DNA of 12,463 nucleotides from a virus. Its lineage: Duplodnaviria; Heunggongvirae; Uroviricota; Caudoviricetes. Below the pieces are notes generated by a model, which saw nothing but the letters and a program-made list of their open reading frames with translations, did no database searches and was not told where the DNA came from. Shown here one piece after another: positions 1-12,463 of the stretch (positions are counted from its first letter, which is position 1; the number at the start of each line of letters is the position of its first letter). A program made the position numbers and the translations under genes. The stretch lies in the IMG/VR virus record IMGVR_UViG_2531839234_000008; one strand, written 5' to 3'.

Positions 1-163
1 CAATTTCAGAACATCGACGCTTCTTCGCAAAATAAACCAGGGCGATATCAAAGGCGCATGTGATCAGCTACGGCGCTGGACATACGCTGGCGGTAAGCAA
101 TGGAAAGGGCTGATGACTCGCCGCGAGATTGAGCGTGAAGTCTGTTTGTGGGGGCAACAATGA
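1..163 (+). CDS. R: Phage endolysin (lysozyme), C-terminal fragment; 5' end lies outside the window
   Basis: Frame beginning at nt 2 is open from the window edge to TGA at 161-163 and translates to ...[53 protein letters not shown], which I recognise as the C-terminal tail of lambdoid prophage endolysins. Its stop overlaps the Rz start (ATGA at 160-163). Position immediately upstream of Rz fits the lysis cassette. Confidence 0.75.
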
Positions 164-597
164 GCAGGGTAACCGTTATTATCTCCGCTCTGGTTATCTG
201 CATTATCGCCTGCCTGTCATGGGCTGTTAATCATTACCGTGATAACGCCATCGCCTACAAAGAGCAGCGCGATAAAGCCACATCCATCATCGCTGATATG
301 CAGAAGCGGCAACGTGATGTAGCAGAACTTGACGCCAGATACACAAAGGAGCTTGCTGATGCTAATGCGACTATCGAAAGTCTCCGTGCTGATGTTTCTG
401 CTGGGCGTAAGCGCCTGCAAGTCTCCGCCACCTGTGCAAAGTCAACGACCGGAGCCAGCAGCATGGGCGATGGAGAAAGCCCAGGACTTACAGCAGATGC
501 TGAACTCAATTATTACCGTCTCCGAGGTGGAATCGACAAGATAACCGCGCAGGTTAACTACCTGCAGGAGTACATCAGGACGCAATGCCTGAAATAA
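160..597 (+). CDS. Rz: Rz i-spanin (inner-membrane spanin)
   Basis: Translation [39 protein letters not shown]...YTKELADA... closely matches lambda Rz as I remember it (N-terminal TM helix, coiled-coil periplasmic domain). The ORF track starts at GTG 148, but ATG at 160 matches the lambda Rz N-terminus and is coupled to the endolysin stop. Ends TAA 595-597. Confidence 0.9.
359..544 (+). CDS. Rz1: Rz1 o-spanin (outer-membrane lipoprotein), embedded in the +1 frame of Rz
   Basis: The +1 frame inside Rz encodes [20 protein letters not shown]|[13 protein letters not shown]..., a signal peptide with a lipobox-like VSAC followed by a proline-rich segment, as in lambda Rz1. AAAGGAG at 344-350 sits 8 nt before ATG 359. 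An alternative start is ATG 365. Confidence 0.75.
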
Positions 598-630
598 TTT
601 TTTTTGCAAATCACAAAGTCCATTTAATGA

Positions 631-654
631 GCCTCGCGATGCGGGGCTTTTTGC
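631..654 (+). terminator. Putative intrinsic terminator, first of two after Rz
   Basis: GCCTCGC (631-637) pairs with GCGGGGC (641-647) as a 7-bp stem (one G-U), loop GAT, followed by CTTTTTG. A T8 run (598-605) also follows the Rz stop directly. Confidence 0.45.
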
Positions 655-659
655 AATAA

Positions 660-684
660 ATGCGTACCGCAACGCATGTTTTTT
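660..684 (+). terminator. Putative intrinsic terminator, second of two after Rz
   Basis: ATGCGT (660-665) and ACGCAT (672-677) form a perfect 6-bp stem with a 6-nt loop, followed by G and a T6 run (679-684). Confidence 0.5.
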
Positions 685-799
685 ACACCGAACCTGCCCC
701 TTTGGAATGGGCCTTTGAGGATACCAGTTAGTGCTGGCGAGCCTCGGTGGGCTGGTTTCCTGTGCGGCAAAGGTTCATTTCAAAGAGTAGGTACACGCT

Positions 800-1297
800 A
801 TGAAATCATTAACCCTCTTCAATCAACCAATCCGTATCGGTGAAGATGGCATGATCTGCCTCACTGATATGTGGAAAGCCAGTGGTAAAAGTGAATCTGA
901 ATCTCCGTACCACTACCTGCGAAACAAGCAGACCAAAGAGTTCTTGGCTGAGCTGGAGAAAAACCACGAATCTGTGGTTTTTACGGAACGCGGTGCGCAC
1001 GGTGGAACTTATGGCGGAAAGTTCGTTGCTTATGATTACGCAGCATGGCTAAACCCCGGATTTAAATATGCAGCCTATAAAGTCCTCGATGATTACTTCA
1101 CCGGAGAGCTTCATCATCGGAACAGCTTAAGTGCGCAGCTCAACATGAAATGTCATGAGTTTGATCAGAAAAAAGACATGGCGAGCTTCTGTGGACAAGG
1201 CCTCGCGGCATGGCGCTACACGAAACCTGGTTTGATCGCTGAAATTAACTCCCTGGCTAACCAGTTGCAGATTTCGATCCCCGGGCTTCCGGGATGA
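800..1297 (+). CDS. KilA-N-like domain protein, accessory moron gene of unknown function
   Basis: 165-aa ORF. The N-terminal part (...FNQPIRIGEDGMICLTDMWKASGKSESESPYHYLRNKQTKEFLAELEKN...) fits the pattern I associate with KilA-N/APSES-type phage DNA-binding domains (IR-x-DG-x-L-D-x-A-G...P-x-x-(W/Y)L...T-x-E(L/F)). It lies between the lysis cassette and cos, a known moron hotspot in lambdoid phages. Shine-Dalgarno is weak. Domain call is from memory, not a profile search. Confidence 0.6.
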   Translation: MKSLTLFNQPIRIGEDGMICLTDMWKASGKSESESPYHYLRNKQTKEFLAELEKNHESVVFTERGAHGGTYGGKFVAYDYAAWLNPGFKYAAYKVLDDYFTGELHHRNSLSAQLNMKCHEFDQKKDMASFCGQGLAAWRYTKPGLIAEINSLANQLQISIPGLPG

Positions 1298-1551
1298 GTG
1301 ATCGTGTCATTGAATGCGCCTCCAGAGCGGGGCGCGACTTCTCAGAGTTCATGAAAGGCGAGAAGGGTATGATGGAAGCATTGGCCTCGGTGGATGAGTT
1401 TGGCGAGCAGCTGCGCCTCAACGGCTGTGTCAATCATCACTTTGTTAGCTACATGATGCGGAACTCGATCATGCAGGCATTCATGGACATGGCAAAAGCC
1501 GAGAGGAAAGAAGAGCGCCGGCGTAAGCGAGCGGAAGCAAAAGCGAAGTAG
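1294..1551 (+). CDS. Hypothetical small protein (85 aa) with a basic Lys/Arg/Glu-rich C-terminus, translationally coupled to the upstream gene
   Basis: ATG at 1294 overlaps the stop of the preceding ORF (ATGA, 1294-1297). Same-strand ORF ending TAG 1549-1551 and followed immediately by a strong hairpin. C-terminus AKAERKEERRRKRAEAKAK is highly charged. No homolog recognised. The frame is closed by TAA at 1258-1260, so this is not a frameshifted continuation of the KilA-N ORF. Confidence 0.5.
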   Translation: MSDRVIECASRAGRDFSEFMKGEKGMMEALASVDEFGEQLRLNGCVNHHFVSYMMRNSIMQAFMDMAKAERKEERRRKRAEAKAK

Positions 1552-1559
1552 CCATTACA

Positions 1560-1581
1560 AAGCCCATCTACTGGTGGGCTT
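1560..1581 (+). other. Strong hairpin directly after the moron stop codon (possible terminator or RNA-stability element, no U-tract)
   Basis: AAGCCCATC (1560-1568) pairs with GGTGGGCTT (1573-1581) as a roughly 9-bp stem (one G-U) with loop TACT, 9 nt after the TAG stop. It is followed by GATAATGG, not a T-run, so it is not a canonical intrinsic terminator. Confidence 0.35.
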
Positions 1582-1970
1582 GATAATGGCTTATACCCTA
1601 CACGGGATAACTTAACTGATATCCCTTTTAACGGATAAAGGTATTCAAGCCTGACACATCATGCGCTGTATCGTCGCTGTATTTCCGCATTAACCATGAC
1701 CGTAGCCCGACGGGGAATTCCTTCTGCGCGAGTGTGCGGGAATAATCAAAAACGATGCACACCGGGTTTTTACCGCGCTAATGATTCGCGGGTTTGTCCC
1801 TCATGCTCGCCAGTCCTGTGCGGGGGTGGAAGAAACAGGACACTCACACAGATTCTTGTGGGTCGATGCTATTCCTTTCTGGATTATCCCGATGCCATTC
1901 ATGCAAGGGCTGTATCAGACGTTCGTCATGGCTTTCAGGCTGACGGCTCCTCCCGGTGGGGTGGCCTGCC

Positions 1971-1990
1971 ACGGGGCGGGAGCGTCGCGG
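1971..1990. other. cosN: Candidate cosN (cohesive-end nicking site) of a lambda-like packaging system
   Basis: ACGGGGCGGGAGCGTCGCGG (1971-1990) versus the lambda cos junction as I recall it, ACGGGGCGGCGACCTCGCGG: same length, identical flanks (ACGGGGCGG ... TCGCGG), 15 of 20 positions identical, divergence only in the central 5 nt. It sits about 170 bp upstream of the small terminase start, as lambda cosN does relative to Nu1. By analogy the 12-nt cohesive end would be GGGCGGGAGCGT (1974-1985). Confidence 0.5.
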
Positions 1991-2150
1991 AAAAAGGCTA
2001 GTTTTTGCATTTTTATCGGCCACCATCATCTTTGCATCTTATTGATTATTAATGGTTATTTGTTTTTTGTATGTCGAATTGAGTGTTTTTTGTTCGACAT
2101 CGAACGCGTTTTCTTAAAGTTGTTCGCACGATGCATGTTTAAAGCTCTCC
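1991..2150. promoter_or_regulatory. cosB: Candidate cosB-like region (terminase small-subunit/IHF binding) between cosN and the terminase genes
   Basis: AT-rich segment between the cosN candidate and the terminase RBS. It contains a perfect 8-bp inverted repeat, ATGTCGAA (2071-2078) and TTCGACAT (2093-2100), with a 14-bp T-rich spacer. It also has three TGCAT-core repeats (TTTGCATTTTTA 2004-2015, TTTGCATCTTAT 2031-2042, ATGCATGTTTA 2131-2141) and a related TGTTCGCAC at 2121-2129. The role is inferred from position only. Confidence 0.35.
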
Positions 2151-2159
2151 GGAGGAAAT

Positions 2160-2651
2160 ATGGATCATGAGTTGAAAAACCTGGTGCTGAATATTAATCA
2201 ACTGGCGGCTTTATCTGGTCTGCACCGCCAGACTGTCGTGGCAAGACTGAAAAACATTCGTCCCGCTGGTGGACATGACAAACTCAAGCTATACCGGTTG
2301 ACCGATATTCTGACTGAATTTATGGGGTTACCACCGCCGGTTGCTGAGGGCGAAATGGATCCACATGAACGCAAAGCCTGGTATCAGTCTGAACGTGAGC
2401 GTCTTAAGTTCGAACAGGAAACGGCACAACTCATTCCGGCCAGTGATGTCAGACGGGAGTTTGCCATCTGGGCAAAAGCGGTCGTGCAGGTGCTGGAGAC
2501 ATTACCGGATATTCTGGAACGTGACTGTGGTCTGCAGCCTGCCGCTGTGAGCCGTGTTCAGTCCATTATTGATGATCTGCGCGATCAGATAGCCCTGCGG
2601 GTGACCGAAGCAGGTGCGGATGATGAGGAGGAATTACAGCAGGAGGAGTAA
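2160..2651 (+). CDS. Terminase small subunit (Nu1-like, N-terminal helix-turn-helix)
   Basis: 163-aa ORF with GGAGG 4 nt upstream of ATG 2160. N-terminus ...INQLAALSGLHRQTVVARL... looks like an HTH. Acidic C-terminus. Its stop overlaps the large terminase start (TAATG at 2649-2653). Position is immediately after cos and before the large subunit. Confidence 0.75.
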   Translation: MDHELKNLVLNINQLAALSGLHRQTVVARLKNIRPAGGHDKLKLYRLTDILTEFMGLPPPVAEGEMDPHERKAWYQSERERLKFEQETAQLIPASDVRREFAIWAKAVVQVLETLPDILERDCGLQPAAVSRVQSIIDDLRDQIALRVTEAGADDEEELQQEE

Positions 2652-4753
2652 TGCTGAATCAGGAAACCGCAAAGGCAGCACGAACCGATTCAGGTTATAT
2701 CCTTCGCGCACCGAGACGAATGCGGGTTGCTGATGCCGTTGCTCAGTATATGCGGGTGCCCATGGGGGCCGGGAACTCAGTCCCGTGGGATCCGCTGGTG
2801 GCACCGTATGTTATTGAGCCGATGAACTGCCTGGCCTCGCGTGAATACGACGCAGTGATATTTGTTGGCCCGGCACGAACCGGCAAGACTATCGGCCTGA
2901 TTGACGGCTGGGTGATTTACAACGTGATTTGCGATCCTGCGGATATGCCGATCATTCAGATGACGGAGGAAAAAGCCCGCGAACACTCCAAAAAACGACT
3001 CGCCAGAACGTTTCGCGTCAGCCCGGAAGTGGTCAGTCGCCTGAGTCCGAACAAAAATGACAACAACGTTTATGACAGAACATTCCTTGCTGGCAACTAC
3101 CTGAAAATCGGCTGGCCGTCAGTCAATATCATGTCCTCATCAGATTATAAATGCGTGGCGCTGACGGATTATGACCGTTTTCCGGAAGATATTGATGGCG
3201 AGGGGGATGCCTTCTCTCTTGCCTCAAAACGTACCACCACATTTATGTCCAGTGGTATGACGCTGGTGGAGAGTTCCCCCGGCAGGGATGTGAAGGATGT
3301 GAAATGGCGACGGACTTCACCGCATGAGGCTCCACCAACCACGGGGATACTGTCGCTCTATAACCGTGGCGATCGCCGTCGCTGGTACTGGCCCTGTCCA
3401 CACTGTGGTGAGTATTTTCAGCCCTGCGGCGATGTGGTTGCTGGTTTCCGTGATATTGCCGATCCCGTGCTGGCAAGTGAGGCGGCTTATATTCAGTGTC
3501 CTTCCTGTTCAGGACGGATTATGCCTGAACAAAAACGTGAGCTGAACGGACGTGGGGTCTGGTTGCGGGATGGTGAATCCATCAATGCGGATGGTAGTCG
3601 TTATGGTGATCCCCGACGCTCACGTATTGCGTCATTCTGGATGGAGGGTCCGGCAGCTGCTTACCAGACACTCTCGCAACTCGTTTACAAACTGCTTACT
3701 GCAGAACAGGAATACGAGACAACCGGAAGTGAAGAAACACTCAAGACGGTTATCAATACCGACTGGGGATTACCTTATCTTCCCCGCGCCAGCATGGAGC
3801 AACGAAAAAGTGAACTGCTTGAGCAGCGGGCAGAGCCAGTTCCTTCCAGCAGTGTGCCGGATGGCGTTAATTTCCTTGTGGCGACAGTGGATGTGCAGGC
3901 GGGACGTCATCGCCGTTTTGTGGTTCAGGTAACGGGCTATGGCAGCCGTGGCGAACGCTGGATTATTGATCGTTACAACATCACGCAGTCATTGCGCGGT
4001 GACAGCGACGGTGAGAGCCAGCGAATTGATCCGGCCAGCTATCCGGAAGACTGGGATGTCCTGCTGACGGATGTTTTTCATAAAAGCTGGCCGCTGGCCT
4101 CCGATCCTTCTCAACAAATGCGACTGATGGCAATGGCGGTGGACTCCGGCGGTGAAGACGGGGTCACTGATAATGCCTATAAATTCTGGCGTCGTTGCCG
4201 TCGTGATGGCCTTGGTAAACGTATTTACCTGTTTAAGGGCGACAGCATCCGGCGCGCAAAACTGATCACCCGTACATTCCCTGATAACACCGGACGAACG
4301 GGCCGACGGGCGCAGGCCGCAGGTGATGTGCCGCTCTGGCTTCTTCAGACGGATGCACTGAAAGACCGGGTGAATAACGCGTTATGGCGTGACTCTCCAG
4401 GTCCCGGCTATGTGCATTTCCCTGACTGGCTGGGGAGCTGGTTTTACGACGAACTGACGTATGAAGAGCGGAGTAGTGACGGGAAATGGAGTAAGCCGGG
4501 TCGCGGTGCCAACGAAGCTTTTGACCTGATGGTGTATGCCGAGGCTCTGGTCATTCTGCATGGATACGAAAAGATCCGCTGGCCGGATGCACCGGGGTGG
4601 GCGAGCCGGGAAACCTGGCTGGAGAGTGTCCCGGACAGTACCGAACCGTCACCCTCACCGGAACCGGTATCCACGCCTGTTAAAAAACAAAAACGGAAGA
4701 AAACAGTAACTGACGATGTTAACCCCTGGCTGACTTCCGGAGGATGGTTATGA
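2651..4753 (+). CDS. A: Terminase large subunit (lambda gpA family: ATPase plus endonuclease)
   Basis: 700-aa ORF with AGGAGGAG RBS. Walker A P-loop GPARTGKT at nt 2867-2890. Cys-rich segment WYWPCPHCGEYFQPCGD...CPSCSG resembles the lambda gpA ACPHCGEE region. Other segments (VNTDWGLPYLPR, ANEAFDLMVYAEAL) resemble remembered lambda gpA blocks. Confidence 0.92.
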   Translation: MLNQETAKAARTDSGYILRAPRRMRVADAVAQYMRVPMGAGNSVPWDPLVAPYVIEPMNCLASREYDAVIFVGPARTGKTIGLIDGWVIYNVICDPADMPIIQMTEEKAREHSKKRLARTFRVSPEVVSRLSPNKNDNNVYDRTFLAGNYLKIGWPSVNIMSSSDYKCVALTDYDRFPEDIDGEGDAFSLASKRTTTFMSSGMTLVESSPGRDVKDVKWRRTSPHEAPPTTGILSLYNRGDRRRWYWPCPHCGEYFQPCGDVVAGFRDIADPVLASEAAYIQCPSCSGRIMPEQKRELNGRGVWLRDGESINADGSRYGDPRRSRIASFWMEGPAAAYQTLSQLVYKLLTAEQEYETTGSEETLKTVINTDWGLPYLPRASMEQRKSELLEQRAEPVPSSSVPDGVNFLVATVDVQAGRHRRFVVQVTGYGSRGERWIIDRYNITQSLRGDSDGESQRIDPASYPEDWDVLLTDVFHKSWPLASDPSQQMRLMAMAVDSGGEDGVTDNAYKFWRRCRRDGLGKRIYLFKGDSIRRAKLITRTFPDNTGRTGRRAQAAGDVPLWLLQTDALKDRVNNALWRDSPGPGYVHFPDWLGSWFYDELTYEERSSDGKWSKPGRGANEAFDLMVYAEALVILHGYEKIRWPDAPGWASRETWLESVPDSTEPSPSPEPVSTPVKKQKRKKTVTDDVNPWLTSGGWL

Positions 4754-4962
4754 ACCAGAATGATATCGAAGCCATGATTCAGCGTTATACGGAAGCTGAA
4801 ATGGCGGTGCTGGACGGAAAATCCGTCACCTTTAATGGTCAGCAGATGACCATGGAAAACTTATCTGAGATCCGGCAGGGACGGCAGGAGTGGGAGCGCC
4901 GCCTTGCGGCTCTGATTACACGACGACGGGGGCATCCCGGGTACCGGCTGGCGAGGTTCTGA
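4750..4962 (+). CDS. W: gpW-like head-tail joining protein
   Basis: 70-aa product MNQNDIEAMIQRYTEAEMAVLDGKSVTFNGQQMTMENLSEIRQGRQEWERRLAALITRRRGHPGYRLARF resembles lambda gpW, including the C-terminal RRRG motif. GGAGG at 4739-4743 lies 6 nt before ATG 4750, which overlaps the large terminase stop (ATGA). The ORF-track start at 4744 has no spacer to the RBS. Confidence 0.8.
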   Translation: MNQNDIEAMIQRYTEAEMAVLDGKSVTFNGQQMTMENLSEIRQGRQEWERRLAALITRRRGHPGYRLARF

Positions 4963-6471
4963 TGGCAATTCTTGATGATGTGATTGGCGTTTTTTCACCA
5001 GGATGGAAAGCGGCAAGGCTGCGTTCCCGTGCGGTGATCCAGGCTTATGAGGCCGTAAAAACGACGCGGACACACAAAGCCCGGCGGGAAAACCGAACTG
5101 CCGACCAGTTAAGCCAGTACGGGGCCGTGTCGTTACGTGAGCAGGCCCGTTACCTTGATAACAACCACGATCTGGTTATTGGTGTATTTGACAAGCTGGA
5201 AGAACGGGTGGTGGGGAAAAACGGGATTATTGTCGAGCCACATCCGGTATTACGCAATGGGGCCATTGCCCGTGATCTGGCCGCGGAGATACGCACCCGA
5301 TGGAGTGAATGGTCTGTCAGTCCGGAAGTCACCGGGCAGTTTACCCGTCCGATGCTGGAACGTCTGATGCTGCGTACCTGGCTGCGCGATGGTGAGGTGT
5401 TTGCCCAGATGGTTTCCGGGCGCATAAACAGCCTGACGCCTTCTGCCGGTGTTCATTTCTGGCTGGAGGCGCTCGAGCCAGACTTTATTCCCATGACCAG
5501 TGATGAGAGCAACAGGCTGAATCAGGGCGTGTTTGTTGATGACTGGGGGCGTCCCGAAAAATATCTGGTGTATAAAAGCCGTCCCGTATCCGGACGGCAG
5601 ATGGAAACCAAAGAAGTGGATGCAGAGCGAATGCTGCATCTTAAATTTGTTCGCCGTCTGCACCAGATGCGCGGGACGTCTTTGTTGTCCGGTGTGCTGA
5701 TCCGCCTCAGTGCCCTGAAAGAGTATGAGGATTCTGAGCTGACTGCAGCAAGGATCGCCGCTGCTCTGGGGATGTACATCCGGAAAGGCGATGGGCAGAG
5801 CTATGAACCGGATGGTAATGGCAGCAAGGATAAGGAACGCGAGCTTACCATTCAGCCAGGCATTATTTACGACGATCTGAAACCCGGCGAAGAAATCGGA
5901 ATGGTGAAGTCGGATCGCCCCAATCCTAACCTTGAAACTTTTCGTAATGGTCAGTTGCGTGCCGTGGCGGCGGGCAGTCGTCTGAATTTTTTCCAGTACA
6001 GCGCGCAACTATAACGGCACTTACAGCGCCCAGCGTCAGGAGCTGGTTGAATCCACTGATGGCTACCTGATCCTGCAGGACTGGTTTATTGGTGCCGTCA
6101 CCCGCCCGATGTATCGTGCCTGGCTGAAACAGGCTGTGGCATCCGGTGTTATCAGGCTACCCCGCGATCTTGACCGTTCTTCACTGTATACCGCGGTGTA
6201 TTCCGGACCGGTGATGCCGTGGATTGACCCTGTTAAGGAGGCTGAGGCCTGGAAAATTCAGATTCGTGGTGGAGCAGCGACAGAATCAGACTGGGTACGT
6301 GCAGGTGGTCGTAATCCGGATGATGTCAAACGTCGGCGCAAGGCCGAAATTGATGAAAACCGCAAGCTGGATCTGGTATTTGATACCGATCCGGCCAGTG
6401 ATAAAGGAGGCAGCAGTGCCGCAACGAAACGACAGGAGCCGCAGCACACCGACGACCAGTCCGAAGAATAA
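4962..6471 (+). pseudogene. B: Portal protein (lambda gpB-like) interrupted by a single frameshift near a T6 run (5987-5992); pseudogene or sequencing error
   Basis: ORF from ATG 4962 (GAGG 5 nt upstream, coupled to the W stop) runs to TAA 6012-6014. The +1 frame is open from 5986 and continues to TAA 6469-6471. Across the junction the downstream frame reads ...LNFSSTARNYNGTYSAQRQ..., which aligns with the lambda gpB block ...SYEQLSRNYAQMSYSTAR... as I recall it, so both pieces are one portal gene. Removing one T from TTTTTT (5987-5992) restores a single ORF of about 502 aa. Confidence 0.8.
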
Positions 6472-8443
6472 TTCCTGGTTCAGGATGCAGGCTGGTCACC
6501 AGAGTGACGCGGATATTTATATTTATGACGAGATTGGTTTCTGGGGTGTTACAGCGAAGCAGTTTATCAGTGATCTGAATGCACTGGGCGATATCACCCA
6601 CATTAATCTCAATATCAATTCACCGGGTGGCGATGTCTTTGAAGGCATCGCCATTTTTAATGCACTGAAAACACATGGTGCGTCCATTACCGTTTATGTC
6701 GACGGTGTGGCGGCGTCAATGGCGTCGGTCATTGCGATGGTGGGAAAACCGGTCATTATGCCGGAAAACTCCTTCATGATGATTCATAAACCATTTGGCT
6801 TTACGGGCGGTGATGCGGAGGACATGCGCACCTATGCCGACCTGCTCGATAAAGTTGAGGCGGTTCTGTTACCCGCTTATGCACAGAAAACCGGGAAAAC
6901 CACCGATGAAATTGCTGCCATGCTGGCGGATGAGACCTGGATGTCCGGTGCCGAATGTCTGGCACATGGATTTGCTGATCAGGTGACGCCAGCCGTTAAG
7001 GCAATGGCATGTATTCAGTCAAAACGTACAGAGGAATTTAAAAAGATGCCGGAATCCATTCGAAACATGATTACTCCGCCACGCAACAGTGCTCCACGCG
7101 TACAGGATGATGGACCTGCAGCCTCCCGGACGCCAGTGCAGGCAGCAGCACCTGTGGTGGATGAAAACAGTATCCGTGCGCAGGTACTGGCAGAGCAAAA
7201 AGCGCGTGTAAACGGTATTAATGATCTGTTTGCCATGTTTGGCGGGCGTTATCAGACGCTGCAGGCTCAGTGTCTTGCCGATCCTGAATGTTCGCTGGAG
7301 CAGGCCCGCGAAAAGCTGTTGAACGAGATGGGGCGCGAGTCCACGCCATCTAATAAAAATACCCCGGCTCATATTTATGCCGGAAACGGTAATTTTGTGG
7401 GGGATGGGATCCGCCAGGCGCTGATGGCGCGTGCCGGATTTGAAAAAACCGAACGTGATAATGTCTACAACGGGATGACCCTGCGTGAATATGCCCGTAT
7501 GTCACTGACTGAACGGGGTATTGGGGTTTCCAGTTATAACCCGATGCAGATGGTCGGTGCGGCGTTCACACACAGTACGTCTGACTTCGGTAATATTCTG
7601 CTGGATGTTGCGAACAAAGCCATTCTGCAGGGCTGGGAAGATGCCCCTGAAACCTATGAACAGTGGACGCGGAAAGGTCAGTTGTCTGATTTTAAAATTG
7701 CCCATCGTGTGGGTATGGGGGGCTTCAGTGCTCTGCGTCAGGTGCGTGAAGGGGCGGAATATAAATACGTCACCACCGGAGATAAACAGGCCACTATTGC
7801 ACTGGCTACCTATGGCGAGCTGTTCAGTATCACCCGTCAGGCCATTATCAATGATGATCTGAATATGCTGACCGATGTCCCGATGAAACTGGGCCGTGCG
7901 GCGAAATCCACTATTGCCGATCTGGTTTATGCCATTCTGACGTCTAACCCGAAAATCTCCACAGATAATGTAAGTCTGTTCGATAAAGCGAAACATGCAA
8001 ACGTACTGGAGAGCGCTGCAATGGACGTGGCATCGCTGGATAAAGCCCGCCAGTTGATGCGCGTTCAGAAAGAGGGGGAGCGTCATCTGAATATTCGTCC
8101 TGCGTTCGTACTGGTACCGACGGCGATGGAGTCTGTTGCTAACCAGGTCATTCGCTCCTCAAGTGTCAAGGGGGCTGACATTAACGCCGGTATTATTAAC
8201 CCGGTGAAAGATTTTGCGACCGTTATTGCAGAGCCTCGTCTTGATGATAACAGCCAGACCACCTTCTACCTGGCTGCGTCAAAAGGCTCCGATACGATTG
8301 AAGTGGCTTATCTCAACGGTGTGGATACGCCATATATTGATCAGATGGAGGGCTTCAGTGTGGATGGCGTGACAACGAAAGTGCGTATTGACGCCGGTGT
8401 CGCGCCAGTTGATCACCGCGGTCTGGTGAAATGTACGGCGTAA
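6416..8443 (+). CDS. Prohead protease (ClpP/S14-like) fused in one ORF to the presumed scaffold/major capsid region
   Basis: 675 codons from GTG 6416, which has AAGGAGG 5 nt upstream (alternative start ATG 6485). The N-terminal ~200 aa carry ClpP-like motifs: ...NSPGGDVFEGIAIFNALK..., catalytic-Ser context GVAASMASV (Ser codon 6716-6718), His context MMIHKP. The remaining ~470 aa have no recognisable motif. Because no separate capsid gene exists between portal and the head-completion/tail genes, synteny implies the major capsid protein is encoded here. Confidence 0.75.
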   Translation: MPQRNDRSRSTPTTSPKNNSWFRMQAGHQSDADIYIYDEIGFWGVTAKQFISDLNALGDITHINLNINSPGGDVFEGIAIFNALKTHGASITVYVDGVAASMASVIAMVGKPVIMPENSFMMIHKPFGFTGGDAEDMRTYADLLDKVEAVLLPAYAQKTGKTTDEIAAMLADETWMSGAECLAHGFADQVTPAVKAMACIQSKRTEEFKKMPESIRNMITPPRNSAPRVQDDGPAASRTPVQAAAPVVDENSIRAQVLAEQKARVNGINDLFAMFGGRYQTLQAQCLADPECSLEQAREKLLNEMGRESTPSNKNTPAHIYAGNGNFVGDGIRQALMARAGFEKTERDNVYNGMTLREYARMSLTERGIGVSSYNPMQMVGAAFTHSTSDFGNILLDVANKAILQGWEDAPETYEQWTRKGQLSDFKIAHRVGMGGFSALRQVREGAEYKYVTTGDKQATIALATYGELFSITRQAIINDDLNMLTDVPMKLGRAAKSTIADLVYAILTSNPKISTDNVSLFDKAKHANVLESAAMDVASLDKARQLMRVQKEGERHLNIRPAFVLVPTAMESVANQVIRSSSVKGADINAGIINPVKDFATVIAEPRLDDNSQTTFYLAASKGSDTIEVAYLNGVDTPYIDQMEGFSVDGVTTKVRIDAGVAPVDHRGLVKCTA

Positions 8444-8466
8444 ACGTCGCAGACAACAACTCTGAT

Positions 8467-8487
8467 GGCCCGTAAGGGCTTTTTTTG
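8467..8487 (+). terminator. Putative intrinsic terminator after the capsid ORF
   Basis: GGCCC (8467-8471), GTAA tetraloop, GGGCT (8476-8480) giving a 5-bp stem, followed by an 8-T run (8480-8487), 24 nt after the stop at 8443. Confidence 0.5.
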
Positions 8488-8497
8488 TACCTGAAAT

Positions 8498-8516
8498 CAG
8501 CCCCTGAACGGGGCTG
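8498..8516 (+). other. Second GC-rich hairpin just upstream of the next gene's RBS, no U-tract
   Basis: CAGCCCC (8498-8504) pairs with GGGGCTG (8510-8516) as a perfect 7-bp stem with loop TGAAC. It ends 13 nt before ATG 8530. Confidence 0.4.
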
Positions 8517-8529
8517 TGCGGAGACAGTT

Positions 8530-8853
8530 ATGGCAAAGAATTTTGTAGAAGAAGGAAAAACGGTGGCGATTGTTGCCAGTGCAGCCATCAGCAGCGGAGA
8601 TCTGGTGCAGGTGGGCGATGTTTTTGCGGTGGCGCTGACCGATATTCCACAGGGTGAAACAGGCGACGGCATGACCGAAGGTGTGTTTATGCTGCCTAAG
8701 CTGAAAACGGATGACATGAAAACGGGTAAGAAGGTTTATCTGAAGTCAGGAAAAGTTCAGCTGACTAACAGCGGCTCTGATCCGCTGGTCGGGGTTGTCT
8801 GGGCAGATGCCGGAACCAGTGCAGAAGAAGTGCCGGTAAAACTCAATGTCTGA
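8530..8853 (+). CDS. Small head protein, possibly a decoration/cement protein (DUF2190-like as I recall the family)
   Basis: 107-aa product MAKNFVEEGKTVAIVASAAISSGDLVQVGDVFAVALTDIPQGETGDG... Position is directly after the capsid ORF. ATG 8530 is preferred over the ORF-track start 8485 because of the hairpins and a GGAGA about 6 nt upstream. Family assignment is from memory and uncertain. Confidence 0.55.
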   Translation: MAKNFVEEGKTVAIVASAAISSGDLVQVGDVFAVALTDIPQGETGDGMTEGVFMLPKLKTDDMKTGKKVYLKSGKVQLTNSGSDPLVGVVWADAGTSAEEVPVKLNV

Positions 8854-9121
8854 TCCCTTTTCCCGGCTGGCAGCGCGTATGGATGCTATCACGGTCAGAA
8901 AGATGGGAAAGACAGCCTCGATTAATGATGTCGATATGACTGTGATCCCGGGAGAAACACTGGCAGAGCTGAATGCTCTGTCCGGACCTGCGGTCTCTCT
9001 GGTGGTGTTTTCTTCGGGATACCGCCCACGGCGCGGGGATCGCGTTGTTTATGACGGACAACAATGGACGGTCACACGGCATGAACGCTTTAACGGTAAG
9101 CCAATGATCTTTATTGAGTAA
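8846..9121 (+). CDS. Head-tail joining protein (lambda gpFII-like)
   Basis: 91-aa product. The C-terminal block ...RPRRGDRVVYDGQQWTVTRHE... resembles lambda FII ...LRRGDTLTIGEENFWVDRV... Overlaps the upstream stop by 8 nt (translational coupling). Position is before Z. Confidence 0.6.
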   Translation: MSDPFSRLAARMDAITVRKMGKTASINDVDMTVIPGETLAELNALSGPAVSLVVFSSGYRPRRGDRVVYDGQQWTVTRHERFNGKPMIFIE

Positions 9122-9132
9122 AGAGGTGTGGG

Positions 9133-9711
9133 ATGAAGGGGCTTGAGAATGCCATCCGCAATCTGAACAGCCTTGATACCCGTATGGTGCCACAGGCCAG
9201 CGCATGGGCGATAAACCGTGTGGCACAGAAAGCGGGCTCGGTTGCCACCCGGCAGGTTGCCGGGAATACCGTTGCGGGAGATAACCAGGTGAAAGGGATC
9301 CCCCTGAAACTGGTTCGTCAGCGTGTCCGGGTGTTTAAAGCCAGTCCGTCAGGAAAAATGACGGCCAGGATCCGCGTTAACCGGGGCAATCTGCCCGCCA
9401 TTAAGCTGGGGACAGCCCGGGTCAGACTGGCCCAGCGTGGTGGAAAACTGCAGTACCGTGGCAGTGTGCTGAAGGTGGGTAAATATCTTTTCCGGGATGC
9501 GTTTATTCAGCAACTGGCGAATGGTCGCTGGCATGTGATGCGGCGTATTGATGGCAAAAATCGTTACCCCATTGATGTGGTGAAAATCCCGCTGTCCGGA
9601 CCGCTGACACAGGCATTTGAAGATGCCCGCGACCGCATCATTGCTGCGGAAATGCCGAAACAGCTGGGGTATGCACTGAAACAACAACTGAGGTTATGGC
9701 TGACCCGATGA
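9133..9711 (+). CDS. Z: Tail completion protein Z (lambda gpZ-like)
   Basis: 192 aa. Clear similarity to remembered lambda gpZ: KGLE...L, INRVA, ...RIRVNRGNLPAIKLG..., FIQQLANGRWHVMRRIDGKNRYPIDVVKIPL..., LGYALKQQLR. AAGAGGTG RBS before ATG 9133. Confidence 0.88.
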   Translation: MKGLENAIRNLNSLDTRMVPQASAWAINRVAQKAGSVATRQVAGNTVAGDNQVKGIPLKLVRQRVRVFKASPSGKMTARIRVNRGNLPAIKLGTARVRLAQRGGKLQYRGSVLKVGKYLFRDAFIQQLANGRWHVMRRIDGKNRYPIDVVKIPLSGPLTQAFEDARDRIIAAEMPKQLGYALKQQLRLWLTR

Positions 9712-10109
9712 ACCGACATACACAAATCCGCCAGGTCGTACTGGCACGCCTTCGGGAACAGTGTGGAGACAGCGCCACGTTTTTTGACGGGCTTCCGGCA
9801 TTTGTTGATGCGCAGGAACTGCCTGCCGTGGCGGTGTGGCTGAGTGATGCTCAGTACACCGGAAAAATGACGGATGAAGATGACTGGCAGGCTGTTCTGC
9901 ATATTGCTGTCTTCATCCGGGCACAGGCACCGGATTCAGAGCTGGATATGTGGATGGAGAGCACCATTTTCCCGGCCCTGAATGATGTATCGGCACTTTC
10001 CGGACTCATCGACACCCTGATCCCACTCGGTTTTAACTATCAACGTGATAATGAGATGGCCACCTGGGCGATGGCGGAAATCACGTACCAGATCACGTAC
10101 ACGAATTAA
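9708..10109 (+). CDS. U: Tail terminator protein U (lambda gpU-like)
   Basis: Product MNRHTQIRQVVLARL...GDSATFFDGLPAFVDAQELPAVAVWLSDAQYTG...APDSELDMWMES...ITYQITY aligns along its length with remembered lambda gpU (MKHTELRAAVLDAL...GATFFDGRPAVFDEADFPAVAVYLTGAEYTG...VPDSELDAWMES...LTYVITY). ATG 9708 overlaps the Z stop (ATGA). An in-frame ATG at 9696 is the alternative start. Confidence 0.88.
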   Translation: MNRHTQIRQVVLARLREQCGDSATFFDGLPAFVDAQELPAVAVWLSDAQYTGKMTDEDDWQAVLHIAVFIRAQAPDSELDMWMESTIFPALNDVSALSGLIDTLIPLGFNYQRDNEMATWAMAEITYQITYTN

Positions 10110-10119
10110 GGAGGTGGTA

Positions 10120-10863
10120 ATGACCACGCCAAATCCACTGGCAAAGACGAAAGGTGCGGGGACGACGTTCTGGATGTATACCGGCAACGGCGATGCGTTT
10201 GCGAACCCTTTGTCGGACACTGACTGGCTGCGTCTTGCGATGGTGAAGGATCTGCAACCTGGCGAAATGACCGCTGATGCAGAAGATGACACTTATCTCG
10301 ATGATGAAGATGCAGACTGGAAAACGACAACCCAGGGGCAGAAATCCGTTGGTGATACTTCGGCGACGCTGGCCTGGCGTCCGGGTGACAGCGGGCAGAA
10401 AAAACTGGTTCAGTTGTTCGACTCCGGTGAAGTCTGCGCGTTTCGTATCAAATATCCCAACGGCACTGTTGATGTTTTCCGCGGCTGGCTGAGCTCACTG
10501 GGTAAAACCATTGCCTCAAAAGACGTGATGACCCGCACAGTGAAAATCAGCGGTGTGGGGCGTCCATATCTGGCAGAGGAGGGCACTGAAACTGTGGGCG
10601 TTACCGGGCTGACGGTGGCACCGGCATCCGCCAGTGTCAATGTGGGAGCAACCACCACGCTGACCTTTACAGTAAAACCTGACGGAGCCAGTGACAAAGC
10701 GATCAGTGTGCATTCGACAGATCCACAGACAGCCACTGTGACCCTGAACGGACTTGTGGCCACGGTGAAAGGCGTGAAGCAGGGCAGCGTCAGCATTGTG
10801 GGCATGACCGCTGACGGGAATTTTGTGGCTGTGGCTGCGGTGACTGTCAGCGCTGCAGGTTAA
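10120..10863 (+). CDS. V: Major tail protein V (lambda gpV-like) with C-terminal Ig-like (Big_2-type) domain
   Basis: Product MTTPNPLAKTKGAGTTFWMYTGNGDAFANPLSDTDW...YLDDEDADW...NGTVDVFRGWLSSLGK... matches remembered lambda gpV closely. The C-terminal ~90 aa (TGLTVAPASASVNVGATTTLTFTVKPDG...) look like an Ig-like domain, as in lambda gpV. AAGGAGG at 10108-10114 precedes ATG 10120. The ORF-track start 10045 lies upstream inside U. Confidence 0.92.
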   Translation: MTTPNPLAKTKGAGTTFWMYTGNGDAFANPLSDTDWLRLAMVKDLQPGEMTADAEDDTYLDDEDADWKTTTQGQKSVGDTSATLAWRPGDSGQKKLVQLFDSGEVCAFRIKYPNGTVDVFRGWLSSLGKTIASKDVMTRTVKISGVGRPYLAEEGTETVGVTGLTVAPASASVNVGATTTLTFTVKPDGASDKAISVHSTDPQTATVTLNGLVATVKGVKQGSVSIVGMTADGNFVAVAAVTVSAAG

Positions 10864-10883
10864 CAGGACGATACTCATCATTT

Positions 10884-10907
10884 GCCCCGGTTATCCGGGG
10901 CTTTTTT
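10884..10907 (+). terminator. Putative intrinsic terminator between V and G
   Basis: GCCCCGG (10884-10890), loop TTAT, CCGGGGC (10895-10901) giving a perfect 7-bp GC stem, followed by a T6 run (10902-10907). Confidence 0.55.
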
Positions 10908-10923
10908 GCAGGTGGAGAACATG

Positions 10924-11310
10924 ATGTTTCTGAAACAGGGCACGTTTAATTATGAAAAGCAGTCCGTGGTGCTCAGTGAGCTGTCCGGGCTGCAGAGAAT
11001 TGAATATCTGGCGTTTGTTCAGCAGCGAACGGCAAAGTTTGATGCCGAAGAGGGAGAACTGCCGGAGGCTGAACGACAGATTGCTTTTCTGCGGATGGGG
11101 ATGGATATCAATGCCTGGCTGGTTTCCCGCTCACTGTGGAATGCGGAACAGTCTCAGGATGTTGAGACGCTTTGCGCATCCGTTATTACAACATGGTCGT
11201 ATGATGCCCTGGGAGCGGGGGCGGAGATGGTTCTGTCGCTGAGCGGTATGGGAGCCATTGAGAATGCCGGGGATTTGGAGCATGAGGTGCTGACGCCGGA
11301 AAAGTCCTGA
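10924..11310 (+). CDS. G: Tail assembly chaperone G (lambda gpG-like)
   Basis: Product MFLKQGTFNYEKQSVVLSELSGLQRIEYLAFV... matches remembered lambda gpG (MFLKTESFEHNGVTVTLSELSALQRIEHLAL...). GGTGGAG RBS at 10911-10917. ATG 10924 is preferred over ATG 10921 and over the ORF-track start 10882, which lies inside the terminator hairpin. Stop TGA 11308-11310. Confidence 0.82.
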   Translation: MFLKQGTFNYEKQSVVLSELSGLQRIEYLAFVQQRTAKFDAEEGELPEAERQIAFLRMGMDINAWLVSRSLWNAEQSQDVETLCASVITTWSYDALGAGAEMVLSLSGMGAIENAGDLEHEVLTPEKS

Positions 11311-11648
11311 CGCGGGAAATGCAGTTTGTCATGCGGCTTGCCCGGGAGTTCCGGCGGGCAGACTGGCGGCGGATGCTGTCGGAAATGTCGGCCACTGAGC
11401 TTGGTGAGTGGGGCGATTATTTCCGGATGCAGAGCTTCAGTGATGTGTGGATGGATGCGCAGTTTGCCTCGCTGAAGGCATTGATCGTGAGAATGGTGTC
11501 CGGTAGCAGTGATGCTGCGGTGGCTGATTTCAGCCTTTTACCGGAAGAGAACGGGATACCGGAGCGAACGGACGAAGAACTGATGCATCTTGGGGAAGGT
11601 ATTTCCGGAGGTGTGCGTTATGGACCAGATAGCCAACCTGGTCATTGA
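11286..11648 (+). CDS. T: gpT-like frame, expected to be expressed only as a G-T fusion by -1 ribosomal frameshifting
   Basis: The frame that is -1 relative to G is open from 11286 (after an in-frame TGA at 11283-11285) to TGA 11646-11648, overlapping the last 25 nt of G exactly as in the lambda G/T arrangement. It has no good independent RBS (ATG 11319 is downstream of the G stop and lacks a Shine-Dalgarno). Followed by tape measure gene H. Confidence 0.65.
   Translation, partial: GADAGKVLTREMQFVMRLAREFRRADWRRMLSEMSATELGEWGDYFRMQSFSDVWMDAQFASLKALIVRMVSGSSDAAVADFSLLPEENGIPERTDEELMHLGEGISGGVRYGPDSQPGH
11298..11304 (+). promoter_or_regulatory. Candidate -1 frameshift slippery site for G-T fusion (GGAAAAG)
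   Basis: Within the G/T overlap the G-frame codons are G|GAA|AAG (11298-11304), one substitution from the lambda slippery heptamer G|GGA|AAG as I recall it. A-site Lys-tRNA re-pairing from AAG to AAA is perfect; P-site re-pairing from GAA to GGA is imperfect. It is the only slippery-like sequence in the 25-nt overlap. Confidence 0.4.
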
Positions 11649-12463
11649 TTTGGGGATTGATGCGGCAGAGTTTAAAAATGAAATTCCCCGTATCAAAAAC
11701 CTTCTGAATGGTGCAGCCAGCGATGCAGAACGGTCTTCTGCCCGTATGCAGCGTTTTATGGAGCGTCAGACTCAGGCCGCCCGGCAGACAATGCAGGCGG
11801 CTTCTTCGGCTGCAACAGCCGCATCCGTCCATGCGCAGACGGTGGAGAAGAGCGCACAGGCTCATGAACGCATGGCCCGCGAGGTGGAGCAAACCCGCCA
11901 GCGTATGGAGGCACTGAGCCAGAAAATGCGCGAGGAACAGGCGCAGGCCATGGCTCTGGCGGAGGCTCAGGATAAAGCGGCTGCTGCGTTTTATCGTCAG
12001 ATTGACAGTGTGAAACAGGCCGGTGCGGGGCTGCAGGAATTACAGCGTATTCAGCAACAGATCCGACAGGCCAGAAACAGTGGCGGGATTGGTCAGCAGG
12101 ATTATCTGGCGCTGATTTCTGAGGTTACGGCGAAAACCCGTGTTCTTACACAGGCTGAGGAAGAGGCTACCCGACAGAAAGTGGCGTTTATCCGTCAGCT
12201 TAAAGAGCAGGCAACCCGCCAGAATCTTTCTTCTTCTGAGTTGCTTCGTGCTAAGGCTGCCCAGCTGGGGGTAAGCAGTGCTGCAGAAGTGTATATCCGC
12301 AAAATGGAGCAGGCAGGAAAAGCCACGCATTCGCTGGGTCTGAAAAGTGCAGCAGCCCGTCAGGAGATAGGCGTTCTGATAGGTGAACTGGCCCGCGGCA
12401 ATTTAGCGGTTGGCGGATTTTTTCCGTCACCCAGCCCAGCACTTTGGGCATGCAGCCTGGCAG
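11620..12463 (+). CDS. H: Tail tape measure protein H (lambda gpH-like), N-terminal ~281 codons; continues beyond the window
   Basis: ATG 11620 opens a frame with no stop through 12463, checked codon by codon. N-terminus MDQIANLVIDLGIDAAEFKNE... resembles remembered lambda gpH (MAEPVGDLVVDLSLDAARFDE...). The rest is Ala/Gln/Glu/Arg-rich and helical-looking, typical of tape measure proteins. Start overlaps the end of the T frame by 29 nt. Confidence 0.85.
   Translation, partial: MDQIANLVIDLGIDAAEFKNEIPRIKNLLNGAASDAERSSARMQRFMERQTQAARQTMQAASSAATAASVHAQTVEKSAQAHERMAREVEQTRQRMEALSQKMREEQAQAMALAEAQDKAAAAFYRQIDSVKQAGAGLQELQRIQQQIRQARNSGGIGQQDYLALISEVTAKTRVLTQAEEEATRQKVAFIRQLKEQATRQNLSSSELLRAKAAQLGVSSAAEVYIRKMEQAGKATHSLGLKSAAARQEIGVLIGELARGNLAVGGFFPSPSPALWACSLA

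Follow-up and report, generated by a model that had tools for sequence, protein, structure and literature searches.

The split portal gene of an Sp3-like prophage segment matches the known Sp3 portal pseudogene of Escherichia coli O157:H7

Sp3 and the described relatives of the locus

Sp3 is a lambda-like prophage of the E. coli O157:H7 strain Sakai, where it lies at 891124-929709 between ybhC and ybhB; its counterpart in strain EDL933 is CP-933K. The Sakai element keeps nleB2, nleC, nleH1, nleD and lpxR, and its integrase and bet genes are annotated as pseudogenes in addition to part of its portal gene. Asadulghani et al. 2009 listed the portal and integration functions of Sp3 as 'D' (defective) and recombination as defective too (PMC2669165, Tables 1 and 2). 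The repressor, antirepressor and replication functions are given as absent in the same work, and no circularisation/excision, replication or packaging of Sp3 was found (PMC2669165).

Close relatives of the Sp3 portal gene are carried by viable phages, including mEp460, cdtI, Ayreon, mEp460_ev081 and others, which match over 1512 nt and have a 1509-nt portal coding sequence where one is annotated. The 502-aa portals of mEp460, cdtI, Ayreon and Tritos show 98.2-99.1% nucleotide identity over the whole gene to the locus studied here and have the same neighbours, namely terminase, a gpW-like gene and a ClpP/capsid fusion. Each of these four phages has a single uninterrupted portal ORF with a serine at residue 343, whereas our locus is split and lacks Ser343. 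A more distant relative is lambda gpB (PDB 8k38 and related entries; E=1e-4, about 140 residues aligned), which belongs to the same family by PF05136 and in which the conserved block AAG..(L/V)S(F/Y)..(S/T).R(N/D)Y aligns; it is exactly inside this block that the gene described below is interrupted.

The window analysed here is a stretch of 12,463 nt from a viral record in IMG/VR. Over positions 1551-12406 it is 99.86% identical to Sakai Sp3 (10.86 kb; 11 SNPs after the junction zone), and this near-identity of the late region extends to a lineage-specific lesion, an A followed by six T (A+T6), and to the same two portal fragments (ECs_0826 and the pseudogene ECs_0827, 'phage portal protein'). 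Sp3 sequence is missing from positions 1-1550 and 12407-12463, meaning that the window is not collinear with Sp3 over its whole length, and neither end of a prophage lies within it; the experiments on Sakai Sp3 bear on the allele and not necessarily on the element from which the window was taken. The split portal gene is the already known portal pseudogene of Sp3 and the CP-933K lineage. One of the two explanations offered by an earlier note on this DNA, that a cryptic or domesticated prophage has suffered a genuine inactivating mutation, is supported by the 'D' entry for the Sp3 portal and the lack of detected packaging (PMC2669165), together with the pseudogene status of ECs_0827. The portal defect has already been published and the locus has little import beyond bookkeeping; what is added here is the ancestral G+T5 state, the loss of a conserved serine, the allele counts and the annotation of two coding sequences by PGAP.

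Anatomy of the split gene and nature of the lesion

Table 1. Features of the window, with positions counted from its first letter
Feature	Position	Strand	Remarks
Lysis-module segment: rrrD end, Rz, KilA-N gene, hypothetical gene	1-1750	+	Stx2c-prophage match
Terminase small subunit (DUF1441)	2160-2651	+	Open frame
Terminase large subunit (gpA ATPase and nuclease)	2651-4753	+	Open frame
gpW-like head-tail adaptor gene	4750-4962	+	Directly upstream of portal gene
Portal gene, 5' fragment	4962-6014	+	350 codons and premature TAA; equals Sakai ECs_0826; PF05136 match
Portal gene, 3' fragment	5986-6471	+	+1 frame; residues 344-502 of the intact protein; Sakai pseudogene ECs_0827
Lesion, A5986 and T6 (5987-5992)	5986-5992	+	Intact alleles G and T5; net +1 nt
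Premature TAA of the shifted portal frame	6012-6014	+	Sequence and translation
ClpP-like prohead protease / major capsid fusion	6416-8443	+	Open in window
ygcP fragment	12405-12463	+	Joined to middle of Sp3 tape-measure gene

The junction in the window reads cgt ctg aat ttt ttc cag tac agc gcg caa cta TAA, and translation from ATG 4962 terminates here with the C-terminus ...AAGSRLNFFQYSAQL*. The +1 frame is closed by a TGA at 5983-5985, is open from 5986 onward (IFSSTARNYNGTYSAQRQELVE...) and ends at a TAA at 6469-6471. With the +1 frame closed at 5983-5985 and frame 0 ending at 6012-6014, the shift must fall within 5986-6011, and the T6 is the sole run of more than 2 nt in that interval. The whole of 4962-6471 measures 1510 nt, and subtraction of one base leaves 502 codons and a stop, the length of the intact orthologues. 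The layout described in the earlier note stands on each of these points: the frame-0 translation confirms the end of the portal frame at 6012-6014, the +1 frame does run on to 6471, exactly six T at 5987-5992 form the only homopolymer of the junction, and one T fewer gives a single ORF of about 502 aa.

As the intact orthologues show, the true portal start is ATG 4962. PGAP begins the 5' fragment at GTG 4890 instead, overlapping the gpW-like gene (WP_010904538.1, 374 aa), and treats 6136-6471 as a separate 111-aa 'phage portal protein' (WP_127446149.1). Both fragments (4890-6014 and 6136-6471; 6191-7315 and 7437-7772 in L001) are given as ordinary CDSs with no pseudogene flag. Automated PGAP annotation in this way presents two ordinary 'phage portal protein' coding sequences where one pseudogene exists.

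The 5' fragment matches Pfam PF05136 (Phage_portal_2) with E=8.3e-74 over profile positions 3-324 of 354, and the intact orthologue matches with E=9e-82 over 3-354. A Pfam search with the 3' fragment alone gave no match, which reflects the reach of the model and not lost homology, as the alignment to gpB is seen in the intact orthologue. Among the 159 residues lost from the 5' product are the last part of the Pfam domain and all of the stretch that lines up with lambda gpB 332-474, including the block that is best conserved with gpB. By the general portal fold, the lost segment should include inner-channel and crown elements, and a fragment of about 350 aa would not be expected to form a working portal dodecamer. 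The profile match to PF05136 and the position of the gene, between the terminase large subunit and gpW-like genes on one side and the head protease-scaffold-capsid gene on the other, both place it in the lambda family; no single uninterrupted ORF spans the whole domain and the C-terminal region. The window portal is thus lambda-family by homology and position, yet it is no functional member of that family.

Comparison with intact alleles shows that the lesion is not a simple change in homopolymer length. The intact sequence is CTG AGT TTT TCC (L-S-F-S), as read in the O55:H7 strain TB182A, mEp460, Ayreon, mEp460_ev081, E. coli H10, ATCC 25922 and 20.1, whereas the window has CTG AAT TTT TTC C; in the three viable phages whose junction was read, the protein reads GAGTTTTTCC. 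On these alignments, the lesion is either a replacement of G by AT or a G-to-A substitution plus an extra T. The T5-versus-T6 difference proposed by the earlier note consequently holds in part: the run does contain one extra T, and orthologous prophages carry T5 in all intact copies read, but the preceding base has also changed, the ancestor being G+T5. Plain slippage from T5 to T6 was rejected as a full description, given an ancestral GAG-T5 and GAA-T6 in the window.

Neither putative intermediate was recovered. An 80-mer with A+T5 was not matched exactly by any of the 5,426 complete E. coli genomes, the corresponding 36-mer found nothing in IMG/VR, and G+T6 in the identical context was likewise missing from both the complete genomes and IMG/VR. 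The two changes may have arisen in either order or in one complex event. The lesion removes the codon for Ser343, and alignment places the same serine in lambda gpB (GVSYEQLSRNY) and in the 8vhx portal. Because this codon is destroyed, a single reversion by loss of one T would restore the frame and leave S343N within the most conserved block.

Distribution of the A+T6 allele and competing explanations

Many O157:H7 chromosomes match a 2-kb query spanning the site at 100% identity, and each has two 'phage portal protein' features. The exact 80-mer centred on the run and carrying A+T6 occurs in 287 of 5,426 complete E. coli genomes, among them the Sanger-sequenced Sakai genome, while the remaining matching genomes (about 1,560) align over 79 nt, one base shorter. 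For comparison, the O157 O-antigen polymerase gene wzy was found in 306 of the complete genomes searched. In IMG/VR, 8 contigs have this allele and more than 120 have the intact form, and among 93 full-length copies there, 86 have GAG-T5 and seven have GAA-T6. These 86 full-length non-O157 copies encode 502 aa in 73 cases and 491 aa in 11, the latter ending 11 codons early through a late stop, and in the remaining two a single nucleotide is deleted at unrelated sites (in an AA run at codon 316 of L098 and in a G5 run at codon 195 of L067). The two deletions indicate that decay of the portal gene by indels recurs. Based on sampled carrier rows and on 287 carriers against 306 wzy genomes, the A+T6 allele appears essentially co-extensive with the O157 clone, and, if confined to the O157:H7 lineage in this way, it could mark that lineage.

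We consider it highly likely that the portal gene of lambda-like Sp3 (CP-933K lineage) in O157:H7 has been split by a loss-of-function mutation that is fixed and vertically inherited. Under this explanation, ancestral CTG AGT TTT TCC would have become CTG AAT TTT TTC C after O157:H7 and O55:H7 split, with vertical inheritance since. Ribosomes would leave the portal frame at codons 343-345 and stop 7 codons further on at the TAA at 6012-6014, giving a product of about 350 aa without the last 159 residues. The portal lesion would then be a single stage in the degeneration of a prophage that is retained because of the cargo it carries (nleB2, nleC, nleH1, nleD and lpxR). The sequences themselves show the base change, where it occurs and in what state the orthologues are; from these we infer that the portal has lost its function and that the lesion is neutral, and the Sp3-type late region of the window would be unable to build capsids on its own.

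The earlier note had also raised a homopolymer-length error of sequencing or assembly, under which the real portal gene would be intact. The source assembly does show signs of imperfection: at its right end the window runs from the tape-measure gene into ygcP, a core gene unrelated to it, the window as a whole has no collinear counterpart among the complete genomes, and some related IMG/VR contigs contain many indels (L016 and L019, about 50 gaps each). An artefact, however, would not be expected to recur in other, independently made assemblies from its lineage, yet this 80-mer recurs unchanged in 287 separate complete genomes, Sakai included, obtained by Sanger, PacBio and hybrid sequencing, as well as in 8 IMG/VR contigs. 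Furthermore, the accompanying G-to-A substitution is not the product of a homopolymer miscall, and RefSeq/PGAP gives two fragments or a pseudogene in the carrier genomes. Sequencing error was ruled out on the population counts and the accompanying substitution, and we give it almost no weight.

It is likewise most improbable, if marginally less so, that the gene is rescued by recoding, in which slipping of the ribosome (+1, on U UUU UUC) or of RNA polymerase (on T6) would yield a functional S343N portal. A P-site tRNA-Phe can re-pair perfectly one base downstream, from UUU to UUU, within 5988-5991, and only 12 portal subunits suffice per capsid. Against this, the A site at the sole re-pairing position holds UUC, not a rare, hungry or stop codon, and the 80 nt downstream fold no better than shuffled sequence (MFE -17.6 versus a shuffle mean of -19.8 kcal/mol, z = +0.76), leaving neither a downstream RNA structure nor an A-site pause codon as a stimulatory element. 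Efficient transcriptional slippage takes runs of about 9 or more, and T6 is shorter. A frame-restored protein would lack the serine that is conserved in lambda gpB, and the Sakai element packages no DNA (PMC2669165). The earlier note had asked whether the split is conserved in viable phages, and it is not: the two-frame layout occurs in one clonal lineage, and the extra base is absent from every viable phage and non-O157 copy examined, with 84 of the 86 other full-length copies open to codon 491 or 502 and the other two frameshifted elsewhere. Programmed frameshifting was ruled out for lack of both conservation and a stimulatory structure.

The 350-aa fragment could instead have been kept for a putative function of its own, such as dominant-negative exclusion of related lambdoid phages. 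In the O157:H7 genomes sampled its ORF is unbroken and does not vary, the late operon that contains it still has the Q antiterminator upstream in Sakai, and closely related portals are common among E. coli phages. Identity among O157:H7 genomes is, however, expected from clonality alone, and other portal copies are frameshifted at unrelated positions, as random decay predicts; retention for function has, in our judgement, a negligible chance of being correct. Spontaneous +1 slippage on U-UUU-UUC may still produce trace full-length portal. There is a very slim chance that such low-level slippage supplies trace S343N portal, or that the 350-aa fragment hinders assembly of related lambdoid portals, and if either were true, a 'dead' portal gene would still shape prophage-prophage interactions in O157:H7.

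Stepwise decay in the O157:H7 lineage

Returning to the fixed loss-of-function mutation, the closest comparison is the prophage of O55:H7 TB182A (NZ_CP038295.1), which resembles Sp3 in its position on the ybhB-bioA side, its cargo (nleD, nleH1-1, nleC, nleB2 and lpxR) and its late genes. It differs from window positions 1720-12406 at 12 sites, two of which are the lesion. Its portal is intact at 502 aa with GAG-T5, and differs from the window portal only by three SNP positions and the extra T. The early region is also better preserved in the O55:H7 element, which keeps cI-like, cro-like, cII, O, P, ren and ninB-G (L142, 3446000-3493000) as well as N, cIII, kil, gam, bet and exo, whereas the early region of Sakai Sp3 is lost or broken; the repressor, cro, O and P genes still present in the O55:H7 orthologue are missing from Sakai Sp3. 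Collectively, the comparison with O55:H7 gives a clear picture of stepwise prophage decay, in which O157:H7 has kept the cargo effectors and lost immunity and replication genes, integrase, bet and portal.

The O55:H7 element has a lesion of its own, an internal stop in the ClpP/major-capsid fusion gene (L002, 7466-9493) that PGAP annotates as a pseudogene; this is an independent and different inactivation of the same head module. A related prophage of DETEC-P61 (NZ_CP116152.1; L009, 1-4) has an intact portal, but its annotation lists a frameshift in the gene for the terminase large subunit. Across the copies compared, the pattern is that of a widespread prophage family whose members decay independently and in ordinary ways, the O157 copy being well advanced.

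Mosaic ends of the window

Positions 1 to about 1750 of the window match, at 99.9% identity, the lysis module that directly follows stx2c in the Stx2c prophage of O157:H7 strain 472 (L013, 9001-10840). Where window positions 1-1550 hold this lysis module of the Stx2c-prophage type, KilA-N gene included, Sakai Sp3 has a different sequence. The 290-nt stretch at 1551-1840, which is common to Sp3 and the Stx2c prophage, is the likely crossover. The IMG/VR draft contigs L020 and L019 share this left junction, which no complete genome among the 5,426 contains; the mosaic could be either a real inter-prophage recombinant or a repeat-mediated mis-join. The Stx2c prophage has been described as a recombination hotspot in O157:H7 (bioRxiv 10.1101/2020.12.02.407981).

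At the other end, the last 59 nt of the window are 100% identical to the core gene ygcP, which lies at about 3.7 Mb in O157:H7, with the junction at 12406/12407. No complete genome has the junction between the tape-measure gene and ygcP, and the right-end 40-mer is absent from IMG/VR. This end is probably a chimeric contig or a scaffold join. The best coverage of the whole window by a complete RefSeq E. coli genome is 92%, and none is collinear with it throughout. The mosaic ends lower trust in the source assembly; the conclusion on the portal gene is unaffected because it rests on independent genomes. The Stx2c prophage of strain 472 also carries a portal gene that PGAP annotates as 'frameshifted' (L013, 16373-18957), here within a different, HK97-type head module.
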